Source: Candidatus Forterrea multitransposorum CG_2015-17_Forterrea_25_41 (GTDB lineage Archaea; Iainarchaeota; Iainarchaeia; Iainarchaeales; CSSED10-239). Taken from it: 64,000 nt of DNA. The DNA is taken from positions 320,001 to 384,000 of the forward strand of contig CP045477.1 in the NCBI GenBank assembly GCA_009392915.1, written 5' to 3'. Each line of letters begins with the position of its first letter. Position 1 is the first letter of the stretch. Under the pieces are notes generated by a model. The model saw only the letters and a list, made by a program, of their open reading frames with translations, was not told the DNA's origin and searched no databases. The position numbers and the translations under genes were made by a program. This document shows, in pieces, positions 459 through 62,288 of the stretch.

Positions 459-875
459 TTATTTAAAAGGATTAATTACCTTTATTTCTTTGATTTTTTT
501 AAAAGTTTTGTAATCTTCAGTATATATTGTTTTAATGTTGTTTTCTATCATAGTTTGAGCTAGTAATGCATCAAAAAAAGGTATTTTCTTATTATAACTT
601 ATATTAATTGCATCTAATATACTGTTTTTATTATATTCTACAATATTAAATAATGTTTTTATTTCAGTTATATAAGTTTCTAGCTCTTTTTTTGATATTT
701 TTAATTTGTTTATAGAAATATTTGTAAATTCCATTATTGTCTGTATACTTATGTAGCATTCTTTTGTATTAGCAAATTTATCTATTATGTCTATTGCTTT
801 TTCTTTATTTTTACTATTTACTAAAAAATACGCATTTAACAAGATATTAGTATCTAATAATATTTTTTCAGTCAT
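459..875 (-). CDS. PIN-domain protein (VapC-like toxin)
   Basis: N-terminal 'ILLDTNILL' acidic PIN motif; 138 aa. Sits immediately downstream of a small RHH-like ORF with a 12-nt gap. Confidence 0.55.
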   Translation of the reverse strand: MTEKILLDTNILLNAYFLVNSKNKEKAIDIIDKFANTKECYISIQTIMEFTNISINKLKISKKELETYITEIKTLFNIVEYNKNSILDAINISYNKKIPFFDALLAQTMIENNIKTIYTEDYKTFKKIKEIKVINPFK

Positions 876-886
876 ATTATTCCTCT

Positions 887-1129
887 CTATTTATAATAAT
901 TATCTCTATTTTTTATTTGATTTTTATTTATTTTTTTAGTGTTTTTTTTCAATTTATTAATTAGATTTTTCTTAAGATCGTCTCTACTATTTTCTAGATT
1001 ATTTAGTGCTTTAATAATTGTTTTACTTATAGCATCTTTTCTATTTCCATAGTGTATTTTTGCAGAATCTCTAAGTAATTTTTCAGAATCGTTGTCTAAA
1101 GATATTGTAATTACACCCATAATTTCCAC
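887..1129 (-). CDS. Small RHH/CopG-like antitoxin (VapB-like)
   Basis: 80 aa, directly upstream of the PIN gene on the same strand. N-terminal beta-strand then helix pattern typical of RHH antitoxins. Confidence 0.4.
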   Translation of the reverse strand: MEIMGVITISLDNDSEKLLRDSAKIHYGNRKDAISKTIIKALNNLENSRDDLKKNLINKLKKNTKKINKNQIKNRDNYYK

Positions 1130-6414: not shown

Positions 6415-7761
6415 ATGTATGATGTAATTATTGTTGGCGCAGGACCTGCTGGTCTTTTTTCTGCTTTAAAGTTTTCACAAAAAAATAAAAATTTAAAAGT
6501 ACTTTTAATAGATAAAGGTAATTTAGTTGAAAATAGACAAAAAACAGAAGTTATGAATGGTTTTGGTGGAGCTGGAACTTTTTCTGATGGAAAATTACAT
6601 TTTACACCTGTTCTTTCTCATGAGAAACTTTTACATCTCTATACAGTTTCAGAATACCAAGAATATTTAGATGCTGTTGAAAAAATATTTTTAGATTATG
6701 GAGTAAACCCAGAATACTATCCAAAAGATTTATCAAAAGCAAAAGATTTAGTTGATAATGCTGAAAGAAACAATATTAAACTATTTATTAGAAAAACTTT
6801 ACATGTTGGAACAGATAAACTTCCAAAAATTATTAAAAAAATGCAAGATGATATTTTAAAAAGTAATATAGAACTTTTACCAAATACAGAAATTAAAGAT
6901 TTAATTATTGAAAATAATAAAATAAAAGGTGTAGTTACAAAAGAAAATAAAGAAATTTTAGGTAAATATGTAATTTGTGCACCTGGAAGATATAATGCTT
7001 CCTGGATTGAAAAAATTACAAATAAATATAATATCAAAACTGTTTATGATAAAATAGAAGTTGGTGTAAGAGTTGAGTTTCCTGCCTCAATTAACAACGG
7101 TCATTCAGAATTAATGTATGAAACTATTTATTCACTTTATACAAAAACTTTTGATGATGTTGTTAGAACTTTTTGTCCATGTCCAAAAGGTTTTGTTGCA
7201 ATTGAAGATTATAAAGATTATGTTTGTGTAAATGGTTATTCAAATTCTAATAATGATGGTAAAAATTCTAATTTTGCATTAGTTGTAGAAGTTGCTTTAA
7301 CAAAACCTTTAGAATCTTCTAGAAAATATGCAGAATTTATAGCTCAAGGTGTAACTCTCTTAGGAGCTGGTAAACCAATTATTCAAAGATTTAAAGATTT
7401 AAAACAAGGTAGAAGATCAACTCCTGATAGAATATTAAAAGCACATATAGAACCTTCTTTAAAAGATGCTATACCTGGAGATATTGGTATGGCAATGCCT
7501 TACAGAATCACTAAAAATCTAATAGAAGGTATTGAAGCTCTTTCAAAAATTTTACCAGGTCTTGATGGAGATTCAACTTTTTTATATGCCCCAGAAGTTA
7601 AATTTAGATCTACAAAAGTTTTTACAAATAAGAAATTAGAAACAGAAATTGAAAATTTATTTATGGCAGGAGATGGTGCTGGAGTTTCAGGAAATATTAT
7701 CGGAGCTGCAATTTCAGGTATTATTGCCGCAGAAGGAATTATTAGTAAGGAATTTACCTAA
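6415..7761 (+). CDS. FAD-dependent dehydrogenase (COG2509-like)
   Basis: N-terminal Rossmann 'DVIIVGAGPAGLFSA'; 448 aa; C-terminal 'FMAGDGAGVSGNIIGAAISG'. Confidence 0.7.
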   Translation: MYDVIIVGAGPAGLFSALKFSQKNKNLKVLLIDKGNLVENRQKTEVMNGFGGAGTFSDGKLHFTPVLSHEKLLHLYTVSEYQEYLDAVEKIFLDYGVNPEYYPKDLSKAKDLVDNAERNNIKLFIRKTLHVGTDKLPKIIKKMQDDILKSNIELLPNTEIKDLIIENNKIKGVVTKENKEILGKYVICAPGRYNASWIEKITNKYNIKTVYDKIEVGVRVEFPASINNGHSELMYETIYSLYTKTFDDVVRTFCPCPKGFVAIEDYKDYVCVNGYSNSNNDGKNSNFALVVEVALTKPLESSRKYAEFIAQGVTLLGAGKPIIQRFKDLKQGRRSTPDRILKAHIEPSLKDAIPGDIGMAMPYRITKNLIEGIEALSKILPGLDGDSTFLYAPEVKFRSTKVFTNKKLETEIENLFMAGDGAGVSGNIIGAAISGIIAAEGIISKEFT

Positions 7762-7805
7762 CTAAATAATTTATTTTAAAAACTAATAATAACAATTGAA
7801 TATAT

Positions 7806-8429
7806 ATGACTGAAGAAAAAATATTAATTGATAGAGAAACTTTAAAAGCTATAGCTTCAGATACAAGATTAGATATTTTGAAATCTTTATCTAAGAGGAA
7901 AAAAACTCTTTCAGAGTTATCAAAAGTATTAGATTTAAAAAGTCCAACAATTAAAGAACATTTAGATCATTTAATTAATTCTAATTTAGTTTTAAAAGAA
8001 GAAACAGAATCTAAATGGAAATATTATTCTTTAACTGATAAAGGTTCAAAATTAATTAAACCAAGAGAAATAAAAGTCTTAATTTCTTTTGTAGTCTCTT
8101 TCATTTCTACATTAGGCCTTATTGGGTTATATTTAATTAAATATGTTTTTTCTTCATCTAAATCAATGATGGCTTCTTCAGATTCTATTGCATCAGACAT
8201 GATAATGTCAAAATCAATTGAAGAAACAATAATGGATACAGCCTCTCAAACAGTTTCACAAGAAATTTCACAAGCACCTCCAATGATTATTTCTAATACT
8301 TCAAATAATACAGAAATATTAATGATAATTGCTATTGGTATTTTATTATCTTTAACAGTATTTTCATTAATCTTATTAATTAAAGATAAACAAAAAAGAA
8401 AAAAAGAATGTGTTTCTGTTATTGATTAA
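7806..8429 (+). CDS. ArsR-type HTH regulator fused to a C-terminal transmembrane anchor
   Basis: N-terminal 'IASDTRLDILKSLSKRKKTLSELSKVLDLKSPTIKEHL' is a winged-HTH ArsR pattern. Two hydrophobic segments follow (residues ~95-115 and ~170-195). Confidence 0.5.
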   Translation: MTEEKILIDRETLKAIASDTRLDILKSLSKRKKTLSELSKVLDLKSPTIKEHLDHLINSNLVLKEETESKWKYYSLTDKGSKLIKPREIKVLISFVVSFISTLGLIGLYLIKYVFSSSKSMMASSDSIASDMIMSKSIEETIMDTASQTVSQEISQAPPMIISNTSNNTEILMIIAIGILLSLTVFSLILLIKDKQKRKKECVSVID

Positions 8430-8784: not shown

Positions 8785-9144
8785 ATGATTCCAGAAATAA
8801 TTAAAGATACAGAATATGTTGTTTCTGGAATCACAGATATTTTTGTAAAGGCAATAACAGGTATTGTTTTAGCTTTTATATTTTTAATATTTAGTAGATA
8901 TTTAGATGTTGTATTTGGTGTTTATTGGCTTTCAAATCATTATATCTTTTTATTTGGAATTATTATTTTTAGTTTTTATCATATTTTTGTAAATTATAAG
9001 CAATTCACAGCCTATTATTTATTAGGTTGGATTCTTGGTATTTTTGGTATGGTTGTAATAAATCTTATTACAACTTCTAAAGCTTTAATATATATTGCAA
9101 TTCCTTTAGTTGTTCTTGCAATAAAAAGATTATTATTTCATTGA
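8785..9144 (+). CDS. Small membrane protein
   Basis: 119 aa, 4 hydrophobic helices. Confidence 0.35.
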   Translation: MIPEIIKDTEYVVSGITDIFVKAITGIVLAFIFLIFSRYLDVVFGVYWLSNHYIFLFGIIIFSFYHIFVNYKQFTAYYLLGWILGIFGMVVINLITTSKALIYIAIPLVVLAIKRLLFH

Positions 9145-53206: not shown

Positions 53207-54001
53207 TTAATAAAAACGAGATTTAACCCCTAAAAGTAAATCTGTAAAATAAAGCTCTATTTTACCATCTTTATTTCTTTTGTAAAAAATATTTGAAAAA
53301 TTTTCAAAATCACCTATTCTTTTTTGATTAAAATCTGGTTTCGTAGGAATTTTTTTATGTTCTTGAATTAATTTAATTTTATTATTAATTTCAATAAGTT
53401 CTGTTTTAGTTAATAATTTTTGATTAAAATCTTTTTGTAAATTCTTAAGACCTGTAAAATCATAGACAATAACACTTTCTCTTTTACTTAGGTTTGTAAA
53501 TGCAAAATGTGGCTTTATTGTATTTACACCAAATTTTTGAAAAACTTGATTTGCAAGAAACTCATTGTTTGCAAGATAGTCTTCTTGTGTTACTTTTAGA
53601 AAAAAAGATTTTTTTTCACCCTTATCTTTTAAAAATAAATTTAACTTTAATAATTTTAGATTGTTAAAGCTATTGTTCTCTTTAATTGGTCTTATCTCTA
53701 AACTAAACTTTTTGGTGTTATGTATTGAATGTTTTGAAGTTTGAAAAATTCCTTTTGAAATAAGCTTTACAAGTTCAGGGTATTCTTTAATTAATTTTTT
53801 ACCTAAAACACTAAGATGCATAACTTCTGATTTATTTAATTTAACTGAATAAAACTGAGTTTTAGAGTTTATCTTCAAAACTTTTAATTGTTTTTCGCCT
53901 TGGTTTACAACTCTTCTTTTAACTTTAAAATTAGGATTAATGTTACCAATAGAAACAACTGGTTTTTTATTTGAAAATAATCTTTTAAAAAATCCAACCA
54001 T
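53207..54001 (-). CDS. Hypothetical protein
   Basis: 264-aa ORF. Confidence 0.3.
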   Translation of the reverse strand: MVGFFKRLFSNKKPVVSIGNINPNFKVKRRVVNQGEKQLKVLKINSKTQFYSVKLNKSEVMHLSVLGKKLIKEYPELVKLISKGIFQTSKHSIHNTKKFSLEIRPIKENNSFNNLKLLKLNLFLKDKGEKKSFFLKVTQEDYLANNEFLANQVFQKFGVNTIKPHFAFTNLSKRESVIVYDFTGLKNLQKDFNQKLLTKTELIEINNKIKLIQEHKKIPTKPDFNQKRIGDFENFSNIFYKRNKDGKIELYFTDLLLGVKSRFY

Positions 54002-54027
54002 ATCTATCTACTTTTTATTAAAAAAAT

Positions 54028-54320
54028 ATAGTGGTTTACTATAAGCCGCTTTATGTATTTAATAGCAATTAATCTAAGCGGAGATTTAAAAAAACTCCTT
54101 GCACCAATTTTTGCTTCCTGCATGATTTCAGCCTCTTTCTTCTCCCCTCAGTTTTACACATCACAGGTTTTTAAAAGGAAAAGAACCGTCTTGTTTCTGT
54201 TCAGGCATGCAAAAGCCCCATTAAGGACTTTATTTTTTTTTTAAAATATTTGGTGAGCGGACCTTCCTCAGATATTTAGAATTACTCTAAATAAATGTGC
54301 TAAACATAAACCACTATATA
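54028..54320 (-). ncRNA. rnpB: Candidate RNase P RNA
   Basis: GC-enriched ~293-nt island in an AT-rich intergenic region. Terminal helix: 54028-54038 'atagtggttta' pairs with 54307-54317 'taaaccactat' (P1). On the minus strand, a P3-like hairpin AUUUAGA-GUAAU-UCUAAAU is followed by 'GAGGAAGGUCCGCUC' (CR-I-like; E. coli GAGGAAAGUCCGGGCUC). 'ACAUAAAGCGGCUUAUAG' (CR-V-like ACAGAAnnCGGCUUA) sits just before the 3' P1 strand. The two strands can form P4 with a bulged U. Confidence 0.55.
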
Positions 54321-54348
54321 TAATATAAAGAAAAAATAGTTTATAAAG

Positions 54349-55050
54349 CTATTTATAAGCTTTATAAATTTCATTAAAAATAATAAATGTTACAAATATA
54401 TAAATATAGATAAATATTATTGTAAAAATACCTATTAAATAATAACTAATACTAGGAAATAGTAAAGTTAATATTGAAAGAACTAGTATATATCCTATTA
54501 GAAGAATAATTAAATATCCTAAAAGATAGAAAAAAGAAACTAACATATTTTTTGTAAAAACTATTTTAAAATGTTTTTTAAAATTAAAAAAATCTTCAAA
54601 TCTACCTGATTTAATATAAGACATATAACCTATGTTTTTTACAAATTCTAAAACTAAATAACAAAAAATAACTATAATTAACAATAGAATAACTATTAAT
54701 AGACCTGAATTAAATGAAAAAACATTTTCAACATCTATACTTGATTTAAGTAAAAATACTGGTATTAACAATATTATTGATATAATACCTTGAAATATTA
54801 AATATAAAAAAGATGCTATAAAATAAACTACAGATAGTTCAAATATTTTTAAAATTGTTTTAGAATTATAATTTTTAAGACTTGATAAAATATTTGCACC
54901 AACAAGTCCTATTGATAAAAAAACAGTTAAAATAATTGAAATTAAAGAAGCTGTACTTCCTAAAATAGTAATTAAGCTTAATATTAATATTATAAGTAAA
55001 AACTTAAAATTAATAAAAGGTATTTTTAAAGAGTTTTTAAATTCCATCAT
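54349..55050 (-). CDS. Polytopic membrane protein
   Basis: 233 aa, 6-7 TM. Confidence 0.4.
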   Translation of the reverse strand: MMEFKNSLKIPFINFKFLLIILILSLITILGSTASLISIILTVFLSIGLVGANILSSLKNYNSKTILKIFELSVVYFIASFLYLIFQGIISIILLIPVFLLKSSIDVENVFSFNSGLLIVILLLIIVIFCYLVLEFVKNIGYMSYIKSGRFEDFFNFKKHFKIVFTKNMLVSFFYLLGYLIILLIGYILVLSILTLLFPSISYYLIGIFTIIFIYIYIFVTFIIFNEIYKAYK

Positions 55051-56781: not shown

Positions 56782-56937
56782 TTAAGCCATTAATATTTCT
56801 GTATGACCAAAACATCCACAAGAGTCAGAACCGCAATCTCCTGCTTGTAAAATATCTGTATGTGTGAAACATCCACAAGAGTCTGAACCGCAATCTCCTG
56901 CTTGTAAAGTATTTAAATTAAAATTTTCTGTATTCAT
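56782..56937 (-). CDS. 51-aa Cys-rich peptide with internally duplicated 19-aa motif
   Basis: Not in the ORF track. Minus-strand translation: MNTENFNLNT-LQAGDCGSDSCGCFTHTDI-LQAGDCGSDSCGCFGHTEI-LMA*. GAGGT SD lies 8 nt upstream. A 57-bp tandem DNA duplication underlies it. Confidence 0.4.
   Translation of the reverse strand: MNTENFNLNTLQAGDCGSDSCGCFTHTDILQAGDCGSDSCGCFGHTEILMA
56812..56925. repeat. 57-bp tandem duplication (2 copies)
   Basis: 'aacatccacaagagtc[a/t]gaaccgcaatctcctgcttgtaaa' recurs with period 57. It encodes the duplicated peptide motif of the 51-aa Cys-rich ORF. Confidence 0.7.
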
Positions 56938-56997: not shown

Positions 56998-57025
56998 CGC
57001 CTGCAAGCTTGGCGGAAAGCTTAAG
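56998..57025 (-). repeat. 28-nt conserved tRNA 3'-trailer element (copy A, after tRNA-Ala)
   Basis: Minus-strand sequence CUUAAGCUUUCCGCCAAGCUUGCAGGCG immediately after the discriminator. 27/28 identical to the sequence after tRNA-Gly. Contains a self-complementary AAGCUU...AAGCUU hairpin; a U-rich tract follows. Confidence 0.7.
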
Positions 57026-57098
57026 TGGACTCTGCGAGATTCGAACTCGCGGCCTCGTCCTTGCAAGGGACGCGCTCTACCAGCTGAGCTAAGAGCCC
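57026..57098 (-). tRNA. tRNA-Ala (UGC)
   Basis: GGGCUCU acceptor with the G3:U70 identity pair; anticodon loop CUUGCAA; T loop UUCGAAU; discriminator A; no CCA. Confidence 0.85.
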
Positions 57099-57360
57099 TA
57101 ATAACTATTGAACCAATATATTATATATATTATAGAACAAAAATATTTATAAACACATCAGATTTATTTTTAATCAAAATTATAAAAATAAAATTATGGA
57201 CTGATAAATATACTTTTAAAAAAATATTATTAAATAAAAAAAGAAAAATTTCTTATAATTAAAGAAATTTTGATGTGTGGAAGAAAAACAAACACTTCAG
57301 GTTAGGTAAGTTTTTAAAACTTTTAAAATAACAACTAACATTTAGTCATTATATAAAATA

Positions 57361-58856
57361 GGAGGTGATCCGTCCGCAGGTTCCCCTACGGACACCTTGT
57401 TACAACTTAGTCTACCTCGCGAAATATAGAATAACTTTATCCTTTAGTAGAGTAAAGTTCATCAACACTCCACTCGGTTGGCTTGATGGGCGGTGTGTGC
57501 AAGGCGCAGGGACATATTCACCGCGTGATAGTGACACGCGATTACTGGGGATTCCAGCTTCATGAGGGTGAGTTGCAACCCTCAATCCGGACTTAGACTA
57601 AGTTTTTGAGATTGCCACCCCTTTTCAGGTTAGATACTCTTTGTCTTAGCCATTGTATGCCGCGTGTTGCCCAGAACATTCACGCTATACAGACCTACCT
57701 TCGCCCACTCCTTCCTCATTGTTACCAATGCAGTCCTATTAGAGTGCCTTCTTTTGCAAGCAAAAAAAGTAGCAACTAATAGCATGGGTCTCGCCCGTTA
57801 CCTGAGTTAACAGGAAGCTTCACAGTACGAGCTGACGATGGCCATACAGCAGTTCTCAGCGCATCAGGTAACCCCTTCAGAGTGACCATCATATTGCTGT
57901 CAGCCCTGGTAAAATATCTGGCGTTTCATCCAATTAAACCGCAGCATCCACCCCTTGTAGTGCACCCCCGCCAATTCCATTAAGTTTCAGTCTTGCGACC
58001 ATACTTCCCAGGCGGTGAATTTAATGGTTTCCCTTCGGCCCTGAGCTAACTCGTAGTTAACCCAACACCTAATTCACATCGTTTACGGCTGGGACTAACC
58101 GGGTATCTAATCCGGGTTGCGCCCCCAGCTTTCGTATCTCACTGTCGAATCCGTACTCGTTAAGCGCCTTCGCCACAGGTGGTCTTTTTAGTATCTTAAG
58201 ATTCTACTCCTACTCTAAAAATACCCTTAACGTCTTCCGGTTCCTAGTCATGCCAGTATCTTTTGCAATTCAACTAGTTAGGCTAGCTGCTTTCACAAAA
58301 GACTTAACAAACCAGCTACACACGCTTTAAGCCAAATAATGCTGGATACCACTTGGGGATTACGTATTACCGCGGCGGCTGGCACGCATATTGCCCTCCC
58401 CTTATTCACATAGTTATTCACACTATATAAAAGCTTACATAGTAAGCACTTGGAATCTCTTTATCACGATTTCTCGCATTGTAAAAGTTTCGTAACTGCT
58501 GCACCCCGTAGGGCTAGGGACATTATCTCAGTTCCCTTCTCCGGGCTACCTCTCTCAAGGCCCGTACAGATCTTCGGCTTGGTAGGCAGTTACCCTACCA
58601 ACAACCTAATCTGGCGCAGTCCCATCCTTTCGCGCCAAAGAAGCATGATTCTTTGACCTTTAAAATAGTAATCATTCCAGATTTACTTTTTTATAGAGCA
58701 TTATACTCAGTTTCCCGAGTTTAACTCTTCAAAAGGGTAGGTTGACCACGTGTTACTGAGCCGTTCGCCAAAACCTCTCATAGCTGAGGCTTTAAGACTT
58801 GCATGTCTTAGTCAGATTCCAATAGCAGTATCCACCAGCAGGATCAGCTGGAATTG
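57361..58856 (-). rRNA. 16S rRNA (archaeal type)
   Basis: Plus strand shows the RC of the 16S 3' end ('aggaggtgatccgtccgcaggttcccctacggacaccttgttacaactt') at 57361. It carries the RC of GTGCCAGCCGCCGCGGTAATAC at ~58366-58387. The 5' end is ATTCCAGCTGATCCTGCTGG (RC at ~58837-58856). Length ~1.49 kb. Confidence 0.9.
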
Positions 58857-62260: not shown

Positions 62261-62288
62261 CTTAAGCTTTTCGCCAAGCTTGCAGGCG
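62261..62288 (+). repeat. 28-nt conserved tRNA 3'-trailer element (copy B, after tRNA-Gly)
   Basis: cttaagcttttcgccaagcttgcaggcg; the inverted-orientation partner of 56998-57025. Confidence 0.7.

Follow-up and report, generated by a model that had tools for sequence, protein, structure and literature searches.

The minus strand of the window (the whole 64,000-nucleotide stretch of DNA analyzed here) very probably encodes, at 54027-54318, the RNA subunit of a ribonucleoprotein RNase P in a small-genome, very AT-rich archaeon. RNase P trims the 5′ end of every tRNA. The gene spans ~292 nt, including a 3-bp extension of the terminal helix P1, and lies, as the original prediction had placed it, between two genes of the same strand (54349-55050 and 53207-54001). 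The encoded RNA is a new, very divergent, AT-rich member of the archaeal RNase P RNA family and an otherwise ordinary housekeeping gene.

A permissive-filter scan of 53900-54450 with Rfam covariance models yielded a match to the archaeal family RNaseP_arch (RF00373) at 54030-54315 on the minus strand, covering the full length of the model (positions 1-288) with 46.7 bits and E = 4e-12, a value that applies to the 551-nt search and becomes ~5e-10 when scaled to the whole window. No other Rfam family, SRP RNA included, fell below E = 2 on either strand of this interval, so that the reading as RNase P RNA originally proposed for the locus, for which a hit to SRP RNA or another family was the named alternative, was borne out. 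When the whole window was scanned by default at gathering thresholds, an archaeal SSU rRNA and three tRNAs were detected and nothing at 54027-54318, because 46.7 bits is less than the curated gathering threshold of 84 bits for RF00373. The sub-threshold score is an effect of composition and divergence, and the 84-bit value is an operational cut-off rather than a biological trait. In addition, the locus is enriched in G+C as had been claimed for it, with 0.32-0.36 over 54000-54299 vs 0.15-0.24 in the flanks (0.34 for the RNaseP_arch match in the covariance model output), and it folds with a minimum free energy (MFE) of -77.8 kcal/mol vs -59.6 +/- 5.2 kcal/mol for shuffled sequences (z = -3.5).

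The conserved regions CR-I to CR-V are all present in the canonical order (Table 1). CR-I (GAGGAAGGUCCGCUC at 54255-54269) and CR-V (ACAUAAAGCGGCUUA, near the 3′ end) were found where they had been predicted, and the two pair as P4 with U54261 bulged, through eight pairs that are 100% paired in the clade of closest relatives. The closing helix of the original prediction corresponds to a P1 of 9 bp (54307-54315 with 54030-54038) that can be extended by 3-4 A-U pairs, to 54318/54319 and 54027/54026. A P3-like hairpin, AUUUAGA-GUAAU-UCUAAAU, is likewise present, with 8 bp instead of the 7 bp initially given to it. A 4-bp extension of P2 (UGUU with AAUA, with a 3-nt bulge) was considered and dropped, as one change in the relatives fits it and another breaks it. 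Several highly conserved sites deviate from the family: P4 has a G.U pair for A-U or G-C, CR-V reads ACAUAA for ACAGAA, CR-III reads UGAAAU for UGAAAC, and J15/2 is altered.

Table 1 Features of the RNase P RNA locus, in 5′ to 3′ order of the RNA. Position p of the RNA lies at window coordinate 54316-p; A1 and A2 are the alignments described in the text.
Feature	Window coordinates	Strand	Observations
TATA-box-like TTTATAAA	54340-54347	-	22-29 nt upstream of the predicted 5′ end; putative archaeal promoter
P1, 5′ strand	54307-54318	-	AGUGGUUUA at 54307-54315; 9/9 pairs kept in 7 clade RNAs
P2, 5′ strand (UAGC)	54299-54302	-	Pairs with GCUA at 54063-54066; invariant in the clade
P3 hairpin, 8 bp, loop GUAAU	54273-54293	-	A-U to U-A in 3 sequences
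CR-I (GAGGAAGGUCCGCU), including P4 5′ strand and bulged U54261	54256-54269	-	Invariant in A1 and A2; P4 covaries
P5/7, 5′ strand (CACCAA)	54250-54255	-	Pairs with UUGGUG at 54102-54107
A/U-only stretch at the position of P8	54232-54249	-	Predicted MFE 0.0 kcal/mol in 7/7 clade RNAs
P9 hairpin, 7 bp	54212-54231	-	100% paired; U.G to U-A and C-G to U.G in relatives
P10/11, 5′ strand	54202-54210	-	Pairs with 54113-54120
CR-II (ACAGAAAC)	54193-54200	-	Invariant in A1 and A2
P12, 9-bp lower stem and K-turn-like module	54137-54185	-	Lower stem covaries (U-A to C-G)
K-turn-like module CC-UGU-GAUG...CUGA-GG within P12	54146-54167	-	C-stem covaries
CR-III (GGCUGAAAU)	54125-54133	-	G-UGAAA invariant in A1
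P10/11, 3′ strand	54113-54120	-	Clade pair counts
P5/7, 3′ strand (UUGGUG)	54102-54107	-	Runs into CR-IV; A1 and clade pair counts
CR-IV (GUGCAAG)	54098-54104	-	Overlaps the end of the P5/7 3′ strand
P15, simple hairpin GGAG-UUUUUUUAAAU-CUCC	54080-54098	-	34-nt insert of the model cut to 8 nt
J15/2 (GCUUAGAUUAAUU)	54067-54079	-	GCU-AG invariant in A1
P2, 3′ strand (GCUA)	54063-54066	-	Clade pair counts; aligned with P2 of relatives in A1
CR-V (ACAUAAAGCGGCUUA), including P4 3′ strand	54042-54056	-	A1 and clade pair counts
P1, 3′ strand	54027-54038	-	UAAACCACU at 54030-54038 pairs with AGUGGUUUA
Run of 7 T directly after P1	54020-54026	-	Putative archaeal oligo-T terminator; less conserved in relatives
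Antisense 63-aa ORF	54053-54244	+	Spurious; decays in relatives

The 264-aa protein encoded downstream has homologs confined to the lineage (82-35% identity), on whose contigs the gene order is kept: a DUF4013 gene, a gap of ~350 nt, the 264-aa gene and a thymidine kinase gene. This gap holds the RNA in L122/L123, L124, L125, L126/L127, L131 and L132, and alignment A2 joins these six clade relatives to the window RNA, giving seven distinct RNAs at the same syntenic position. The six relatives score 52.7-73.6 bits with RF00373, all below 84. L128 and L130 encode a homolog of the neighboring protein with no RNA upstream of it, and L129 holds only the last ~45 nt of the RNA. When the RNase P secondary structure was drawn for the window RNA, P4 being treated as a pseudoknot, and its 65 pairs were counted on A2, 99.1% were standard pairs, vs 44-56% with the partners slid by 1-3 columns. 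Compensatory double changes occur at eight pairs, a number reached in none of 500 shuffles, and are located in P1, P3, P4 (two pairs), the lower stem of P12 and both pairs of the K-turn stem. Pair 9-278 of P1, for example, changes from A-U to G-C in L131, and the first three pairs of the P1 extension covary (U-A/A-U/U-A in the window vs U-A/G-C/A-U in L125). At the position of P3, L131 and L132 carry wholly unrelated sequences and still form a hairpin, and P10/11, which has a mismatch and a bulge in the window RNA, is a perfect 8-bp helix in L126 (UAUUCCUG/CAGGAAUA). P4 pair 67-359, to which the unusual G of CR-I contributes, occurs as A-U in L126, as G.U in five of the clade RNAs and as G-C in L131. 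A nearly invariant position of the family, the fourth base of CR-V (ACAGAA; window position 54053), is itself polymorphic in the clade: a U stands there in the window, L001, L002 and L126, compared with a G in L111/L124, L122, L125, L131 and L132, and a U also occurs in L081, labelled Pacearchaeota.

The RNA outdoes the nearby thymidine kinase gene in conservation in all three comparisons available, with identities to the window of 99.0% for the RNA and 96.6% for the gene (nucleotide level) in L124, 98.6% and 97.6% in L122, and 85.7% and 77.2% in L126. The universal RNase P core (CR-I to CR-V, P4, P1-P3, P5/7, P9, P10/11 and P12) is under purifying selection. These results bear on a reading of the locus as a decaying relic, in which it would be an RNase P RNA pseudogene in a reduced genome with no further need of it and the organism would either have leaderless tRNAs, as in Nanoarchaeum, or rely on a protein-only enzyme that had taken over. 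The sub-threshold covariance-model score and the several substituted conserved nucleotides would suit such a relic, as would the failure to see an RNase P protein gene in the 64-kb window, where a Pfam scan found none among 20 suitably sized ORFs, a result that says little at such a size. Nevertheless, we regard a relic as highly improbable: the RNA is retained at one syntenic position in seven lineages, with nearly all of its pairs intact and with compensatory double changes, it is better conserved than a housekeeping protein gene, and a TATA-like box stands at a fixed distance from it. DPANN genomes, moreover, are reported to possess RNase P proteins and to lack the protein-only enzyme HARP (PMC6380272), and the only PIN protein found in the window (459-875) belongs to PF01850 (E = 1.4e-14) and not to the PIN_5/HARP family of protein-only RNase P. 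Together with an adjoining 80-aa ORF, this PIN protein resembles a toxin-antitoxin pair of the VapBC type (459-1129, minus strand).

A second reading takes the 63-aa ORF on the opposite strand for a real small protein-coding gene. The ORF exists, and it was called as a gene in L001, a JGI record that annotates it as a protein at 8942-9133, while the ENA assembly L002 of the same organism does not. Against this, relatives whose RNA is 74-99% identical retain as their longest ATG-initiated ORF on that strand only 44, 14, 43, 5, 20 and 18 aa, compared with 63 aa in the window, and the substitutions are patterned as paired RNA helices. As the frame is broken down in every relative, the ORF is spurious, as originally stated, and we consider it extremely improbable that the region is protein-coding.

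In order to place the RNA among those of other archaea, species-representative genomes were scanned for the CR-I variant joined to CR-II (GAGGAAGGUCCNC, 40-70 nt, ACAGAAAC), which yielded at least 119 loci. Most of the matches listed come from DPANN metagenome-assembled genomes (MAGs) labelled Woese-, Pace-, Nano-, Micr-, Undin-, Iain- and Altiarchaeota, with Thermoproteota and Methanomassiliicoccales also among them. Because the variant recurs in so many archaeal loci, the A-to-G change in CR-I, which had been noted as one substitution from the core motif, is a common archaeal variant and not peculiar to the window RNA. Among the matches listed, only L111 resembles the window RNA beyond CR-I (99% over 288 nt); it is labelled 'Candidatus (I)ainarchaeum sp. 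STF1_257' and is the nearest species representative, assigned by NCBI to the DPANN phylum Iainarchaeota. The organism of the window itself recurs in many assemblies, with contigs of up to 664 kb.

Alignment A1 (MAFFT) sets the window RNA beside 12 others with a comparable layout, and in it the conserved blocks are all invariant: CR-I, the CAC of P5, the CR-II motif, G-UGAAA, GUGCAA, GCU-AG and the core of CR-V. Ten of these 12 RNAs score 91.8-156.8 bits with RF00373, L111 scores 54.8 bits, and L120 was left unscored. More broadly, scores of 90-157 bits were obtained for 15 RNAs of other lineages that carry a DPANN label, and of 177 and 213 bits for two controls of type A, so that among the RNAs scored only the window lineage falls below the gathering threshold. 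As other DPANN RNAs pass this threshold comfortably, the reduced architecture described below is as such inside the known family, and the window lineage is just very divergent and AT-rich. When RNAalifold was applied to the MAFFT alignment of distant relatives, P4, P5, P12 and P15 were recovered and P1-P3 and P10/11 were missed, since the strands of the latter were out of register, and therefore anchor-based counts and the clade alignment were used instead. Anchor-based counts of P4 in 93 non-redundant homologs gave GC 24, GU 55, CG 7, AU 6 and UA 1 for pair 72-355 and CG 80, UA 9 and AU 2 for pair 74-353; pair 67-359 is G-C in 90 and G.U in three, two of which are the window RNA and L111.

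Some of these homologs have peculiarities of their own. Among the 93 RNAs that have the G variant in CR-I, CR-V reads GGACUA in 14, most of which are labelled Thermoproteota, Crenarchaeota or Nitrososphaerota (L011, L012, L014, L020, L025, L028, L042, L060, L074, L092 and L099 are examples), a sequence which places G68 opposite A or else allows a register shift that pairs the 'bulged' U with A and leaves P4 without a bulge. The RNA of L077 (JWKY01000012.1, archaeon GW2011_AR19; ~7725-7930, plus strand as oriented) jumps from a point before CR-III (GAUUUGA) to the CR-V core (AAAGGUGGCCUA) and is thus without the 3′ strands of P10/11, P5 and P2, CR-IV and P15; it is an assembly artefact or a broken gene. 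In L016, a match resembling a C/D-box sRNA (snoPyro_CD, 557-614 on the minus strand; 36.4 bits vs a gathering threshold of 45) is found 30 nt away from that MAG's RNase P RNA.

The catalytic (C-) domain of the window RNA is reduced. Between GCAAG and CGCUUAG the RNA has a module of only 17 nt, a hairpin with no G in its loop, and the same module measures 37-42 nt in Thermoproteota and Methanomassiliicoccales. Parsing of this module by regular expression succeeded for 76 of 122 sequences, with about a dozen rows mis-anchored on an earlier CAAG, and only unambiguous rows were kept. Neither the model alignment nor the module parsing revealed an L15 loop with GGU or P16/P17 in the window RNA. The 8-nt J5/7 linker of the model is deleted, with P5 and P7 merged into one 6-bp helix, and as this linker carries one strand of P6, P6 is absent. 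Within P12, the two C-stem pairs of the K-turn each show double-sided changes in A2 while GAUG and CUGA are invariant. None of the three tRNA genes of the window encodes CCA.

The fate of P8 is less certain. Its position is occupied by an A/U stretch of 13-20 nt without predicted stability in any of the seven clade RNAs and without recognizable covariation, and on the basis of this thermodynamic prediction and lack of covariation P8 would have no stable helix and is possibly dissolved. The S-domain could instead be an intact one of type A, in which 54232-54249 form a real P8 (AUUUU/AAAAU) stabilized by protein or by stacking, only P15-P17 are reduced and the RNA is an A/M hybrid. The RNaseP_arch model does align a P8 of 5 bp, all A-U, in the window RNA, 3-5 A-U pairs can be drawn in every clade member, and the GC-rich relatives L070 and L106, as well as L016, have a clear P8 hairpin beside the same reduced C-domain. 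We nevertheless view this alternative as doubtful, though worth keeping in mind, given that the predicted stability is nil throughout the clade, that sequence and length vary there without a compensatory pattern, and that L132 pairs at this position only by invading P9.

With RF00373 as a whole, the window RNA shares, besides the full-length match, CR-I to CR-V, the P4 pseudoknot with its bulged U, P1-P3, P5/7, P9-P12 and the P12 K-turn, as well as the genomic role of a single-copy housekeeping RNA gene; it differs from the family in its score of 46.7 bits vs 84, its 34% G+C, its mostly A-U helices and its changes at near-invariant nucleotides. Type A RNAs (Pyrococcus, Methanothermobacter; L012 and L059) have the same core and the same layout of the S-domain (P9, P10/11, P12, CR-II and CR-III), but they carry a P15-L15-P16-P17 module of 37-42 nt and P6, whereas the window RNA has the 17-nt hairpin and no J5/7 linker. 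In type T/P RNAs (Thermoproteaceae), on the other hand, most of the S-domain and CR-II are lost, while the S-domain of the window RNA is complete save for P8. The RNAs of Woesearchaeota and Pacearchaeota (L017, L003) resemble it in having a short hairpin as P15 and the G variant in CR-I but differ in pairing G67 with C instead of U, in having a GNRA-capped P8 and P9, in scoring 130-139 bits, and in an extra hairpin that lengthens the interval from the P2 3′ strand to CR-V to 37-61 nt, vs 17 nt in the window. This extra hairpin, whose position we take to be that of P19 in other RNase P RNAs, occurs in L003, L017-L019, L022, L029 and many further Woesearchaeota and Pacearchaeota, and the interval measures 14-18 nt elsewhere.

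The closest functional parallel is type M. Type M RNAs lack P16, P6, the substrate-recognition loop of P15 and P8 and have one or more K-turns in P12 (PMC4919922; PMC5499556); their missing CCA-binding motif goes with tRNA genes without an encoded CCA (PMC4919922), and they are active only with proteins, among which L7Ae binds the K-turns of P12 (PMC5499556). Like the type M RNAs of Methanococcales and Archaeoglobus, the window RNA is without P16/P17, P6 and a CCA-binding L15, keeps the K-turn of P12 and is predicted to have no stable P8; the tRNA genes of the window likewise have no encoded CCA. From these features, it would work like type M, with P8 as the one uncertain trait. It differs from type M in that its host is an AT-rich, DPANN-labelled archaeon and not a methanogen, and in that GC-rich relatives sharing its C-domain still have P8. 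Given a host outside the methanogens and a reduced C-domain that recurs in several DPANN phyla, the RNA is not filed here in the type M lineage and may most simply be read as a case of parallel reduction. A paper of 2026 still recognizes only types A, M and T (PMC13462272), and the literature searched offered no account of how the RNase P RNAs of DPANN phyla are structured.

By analogy with the family, the C-domain (P1-P4 and P15) would form the Mg2+-dependent active site that cleaves the 5′ leaders of pre-tRNAs, and the S-domain (CR-II and CR-III around P10-P12) would read the elbow of the tRNA. Base pairing of the window RNA to the 3′-CCA of tRNAs is not expected, because P15 is bare and has no L15 GGU, P16/P17 and P6 are absent and no stable P8 is predicted. 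Like type M RNAs, the RNA alone would be inactive or nearly so and would depend on Pop5-Rpp30, Rpp21-Rpp29 and L7Ae, the last of which may dock on the conserved K-turn of P12. For the enzyme, this predicts a dependence on its proteins and no reading of the 3′-CCA of tRNAs. Transcription probably starts ~25 nt downstream of TTTATAAA and stops at the T-run that follows P1. The TATA-like box overlaps the end of the upstream gene and is found at the same distance in L122, L124, L125 and L132, with TTTTAAA in L131. A scan for sigma-70 promoters and intrinsic terminators, which is not applicable to archaea, gave nothing useful.

Other features were noted in the window. The SSU rRNA gene (57360-58854, minus strand) is followed by tRNA-Ala (57026-57098, minus strand), with no LSU rRNA in the next 3 kb. 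As protein ORFs and the RNase P RNA come next, in a layout that is the same in L124 and L126, the rRNA genes appear to be unlinked. Directly after the discriminator bases of tRNA-Ala and tRNA-Gly lies a 28-nt element, CTTAAGCTTTYCGCCAAGCTTGCAGGCG (56998-57025, minus strand, and 62261-62288, plus strand; two matches vs 0.00 expected by chance), which can be folded as AAGCUU-N6-AAGCUU and could be a 3′-trailer processing signal, a terminator or an integration site. The copy that trails tRNA-Ala is closely followed downstream by a 51-aa ORF (56782-56937, minus strand) made of a 57-nt tandem repeat (56791-56904, 88% identical) that encodes LQAGDCGSDSCGCF(T/G)HT(D/E)IL twice; the ORF could represent either a small peptide rich in Cys or non-coding repeats. 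The 264-aa gene that adjoins the RNase P RNA (53207-54001, minus strand) is hypervariable, with 59% amino acid (70.8% nucleotide) identity between the window and L124 (3001-3780), the same pair in which the RNase P RNA is 99% and thymidine kinase 96.6% identical; its product has no Pfam domain and is confined to the lineage, and in L126 only a C-terminal piece of 146 aa is called.

Taken further, the comparison suggests that an AT-rich DPANN clade reached the type M solution independently, that reduced C-domains are the rule in the DPANN-labelled RNAs sampled, that the A/M/T scheme has no place for them, and that a near-universal P4 pair beside the catalytic bulged U occurs as A-U, G.U and G-C within one clade, a set of propositions that we hold to be evenly balanced between right and wrong. 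Annotation at the gathering threshold would leave the clade without an RNase P RNA and invite false claims of loss, which is a live question in DPANN since Nanoarchaeum equitans; adding the seven sequences to the seed alignment would mend detection. The RNA illustrates the extent to which the composition of an RNase P RNA can drift, to 34% G+C, A-U helices and possibly a dissolved P8, with its core kept, and it provides an independent example of a type-M-like form, predicted to be protein-dependent, that is useful for asking which RNA elements proteins replace. Its value lies mainly in this lesson for annotation and in another example of a reduced RNase P RNA.
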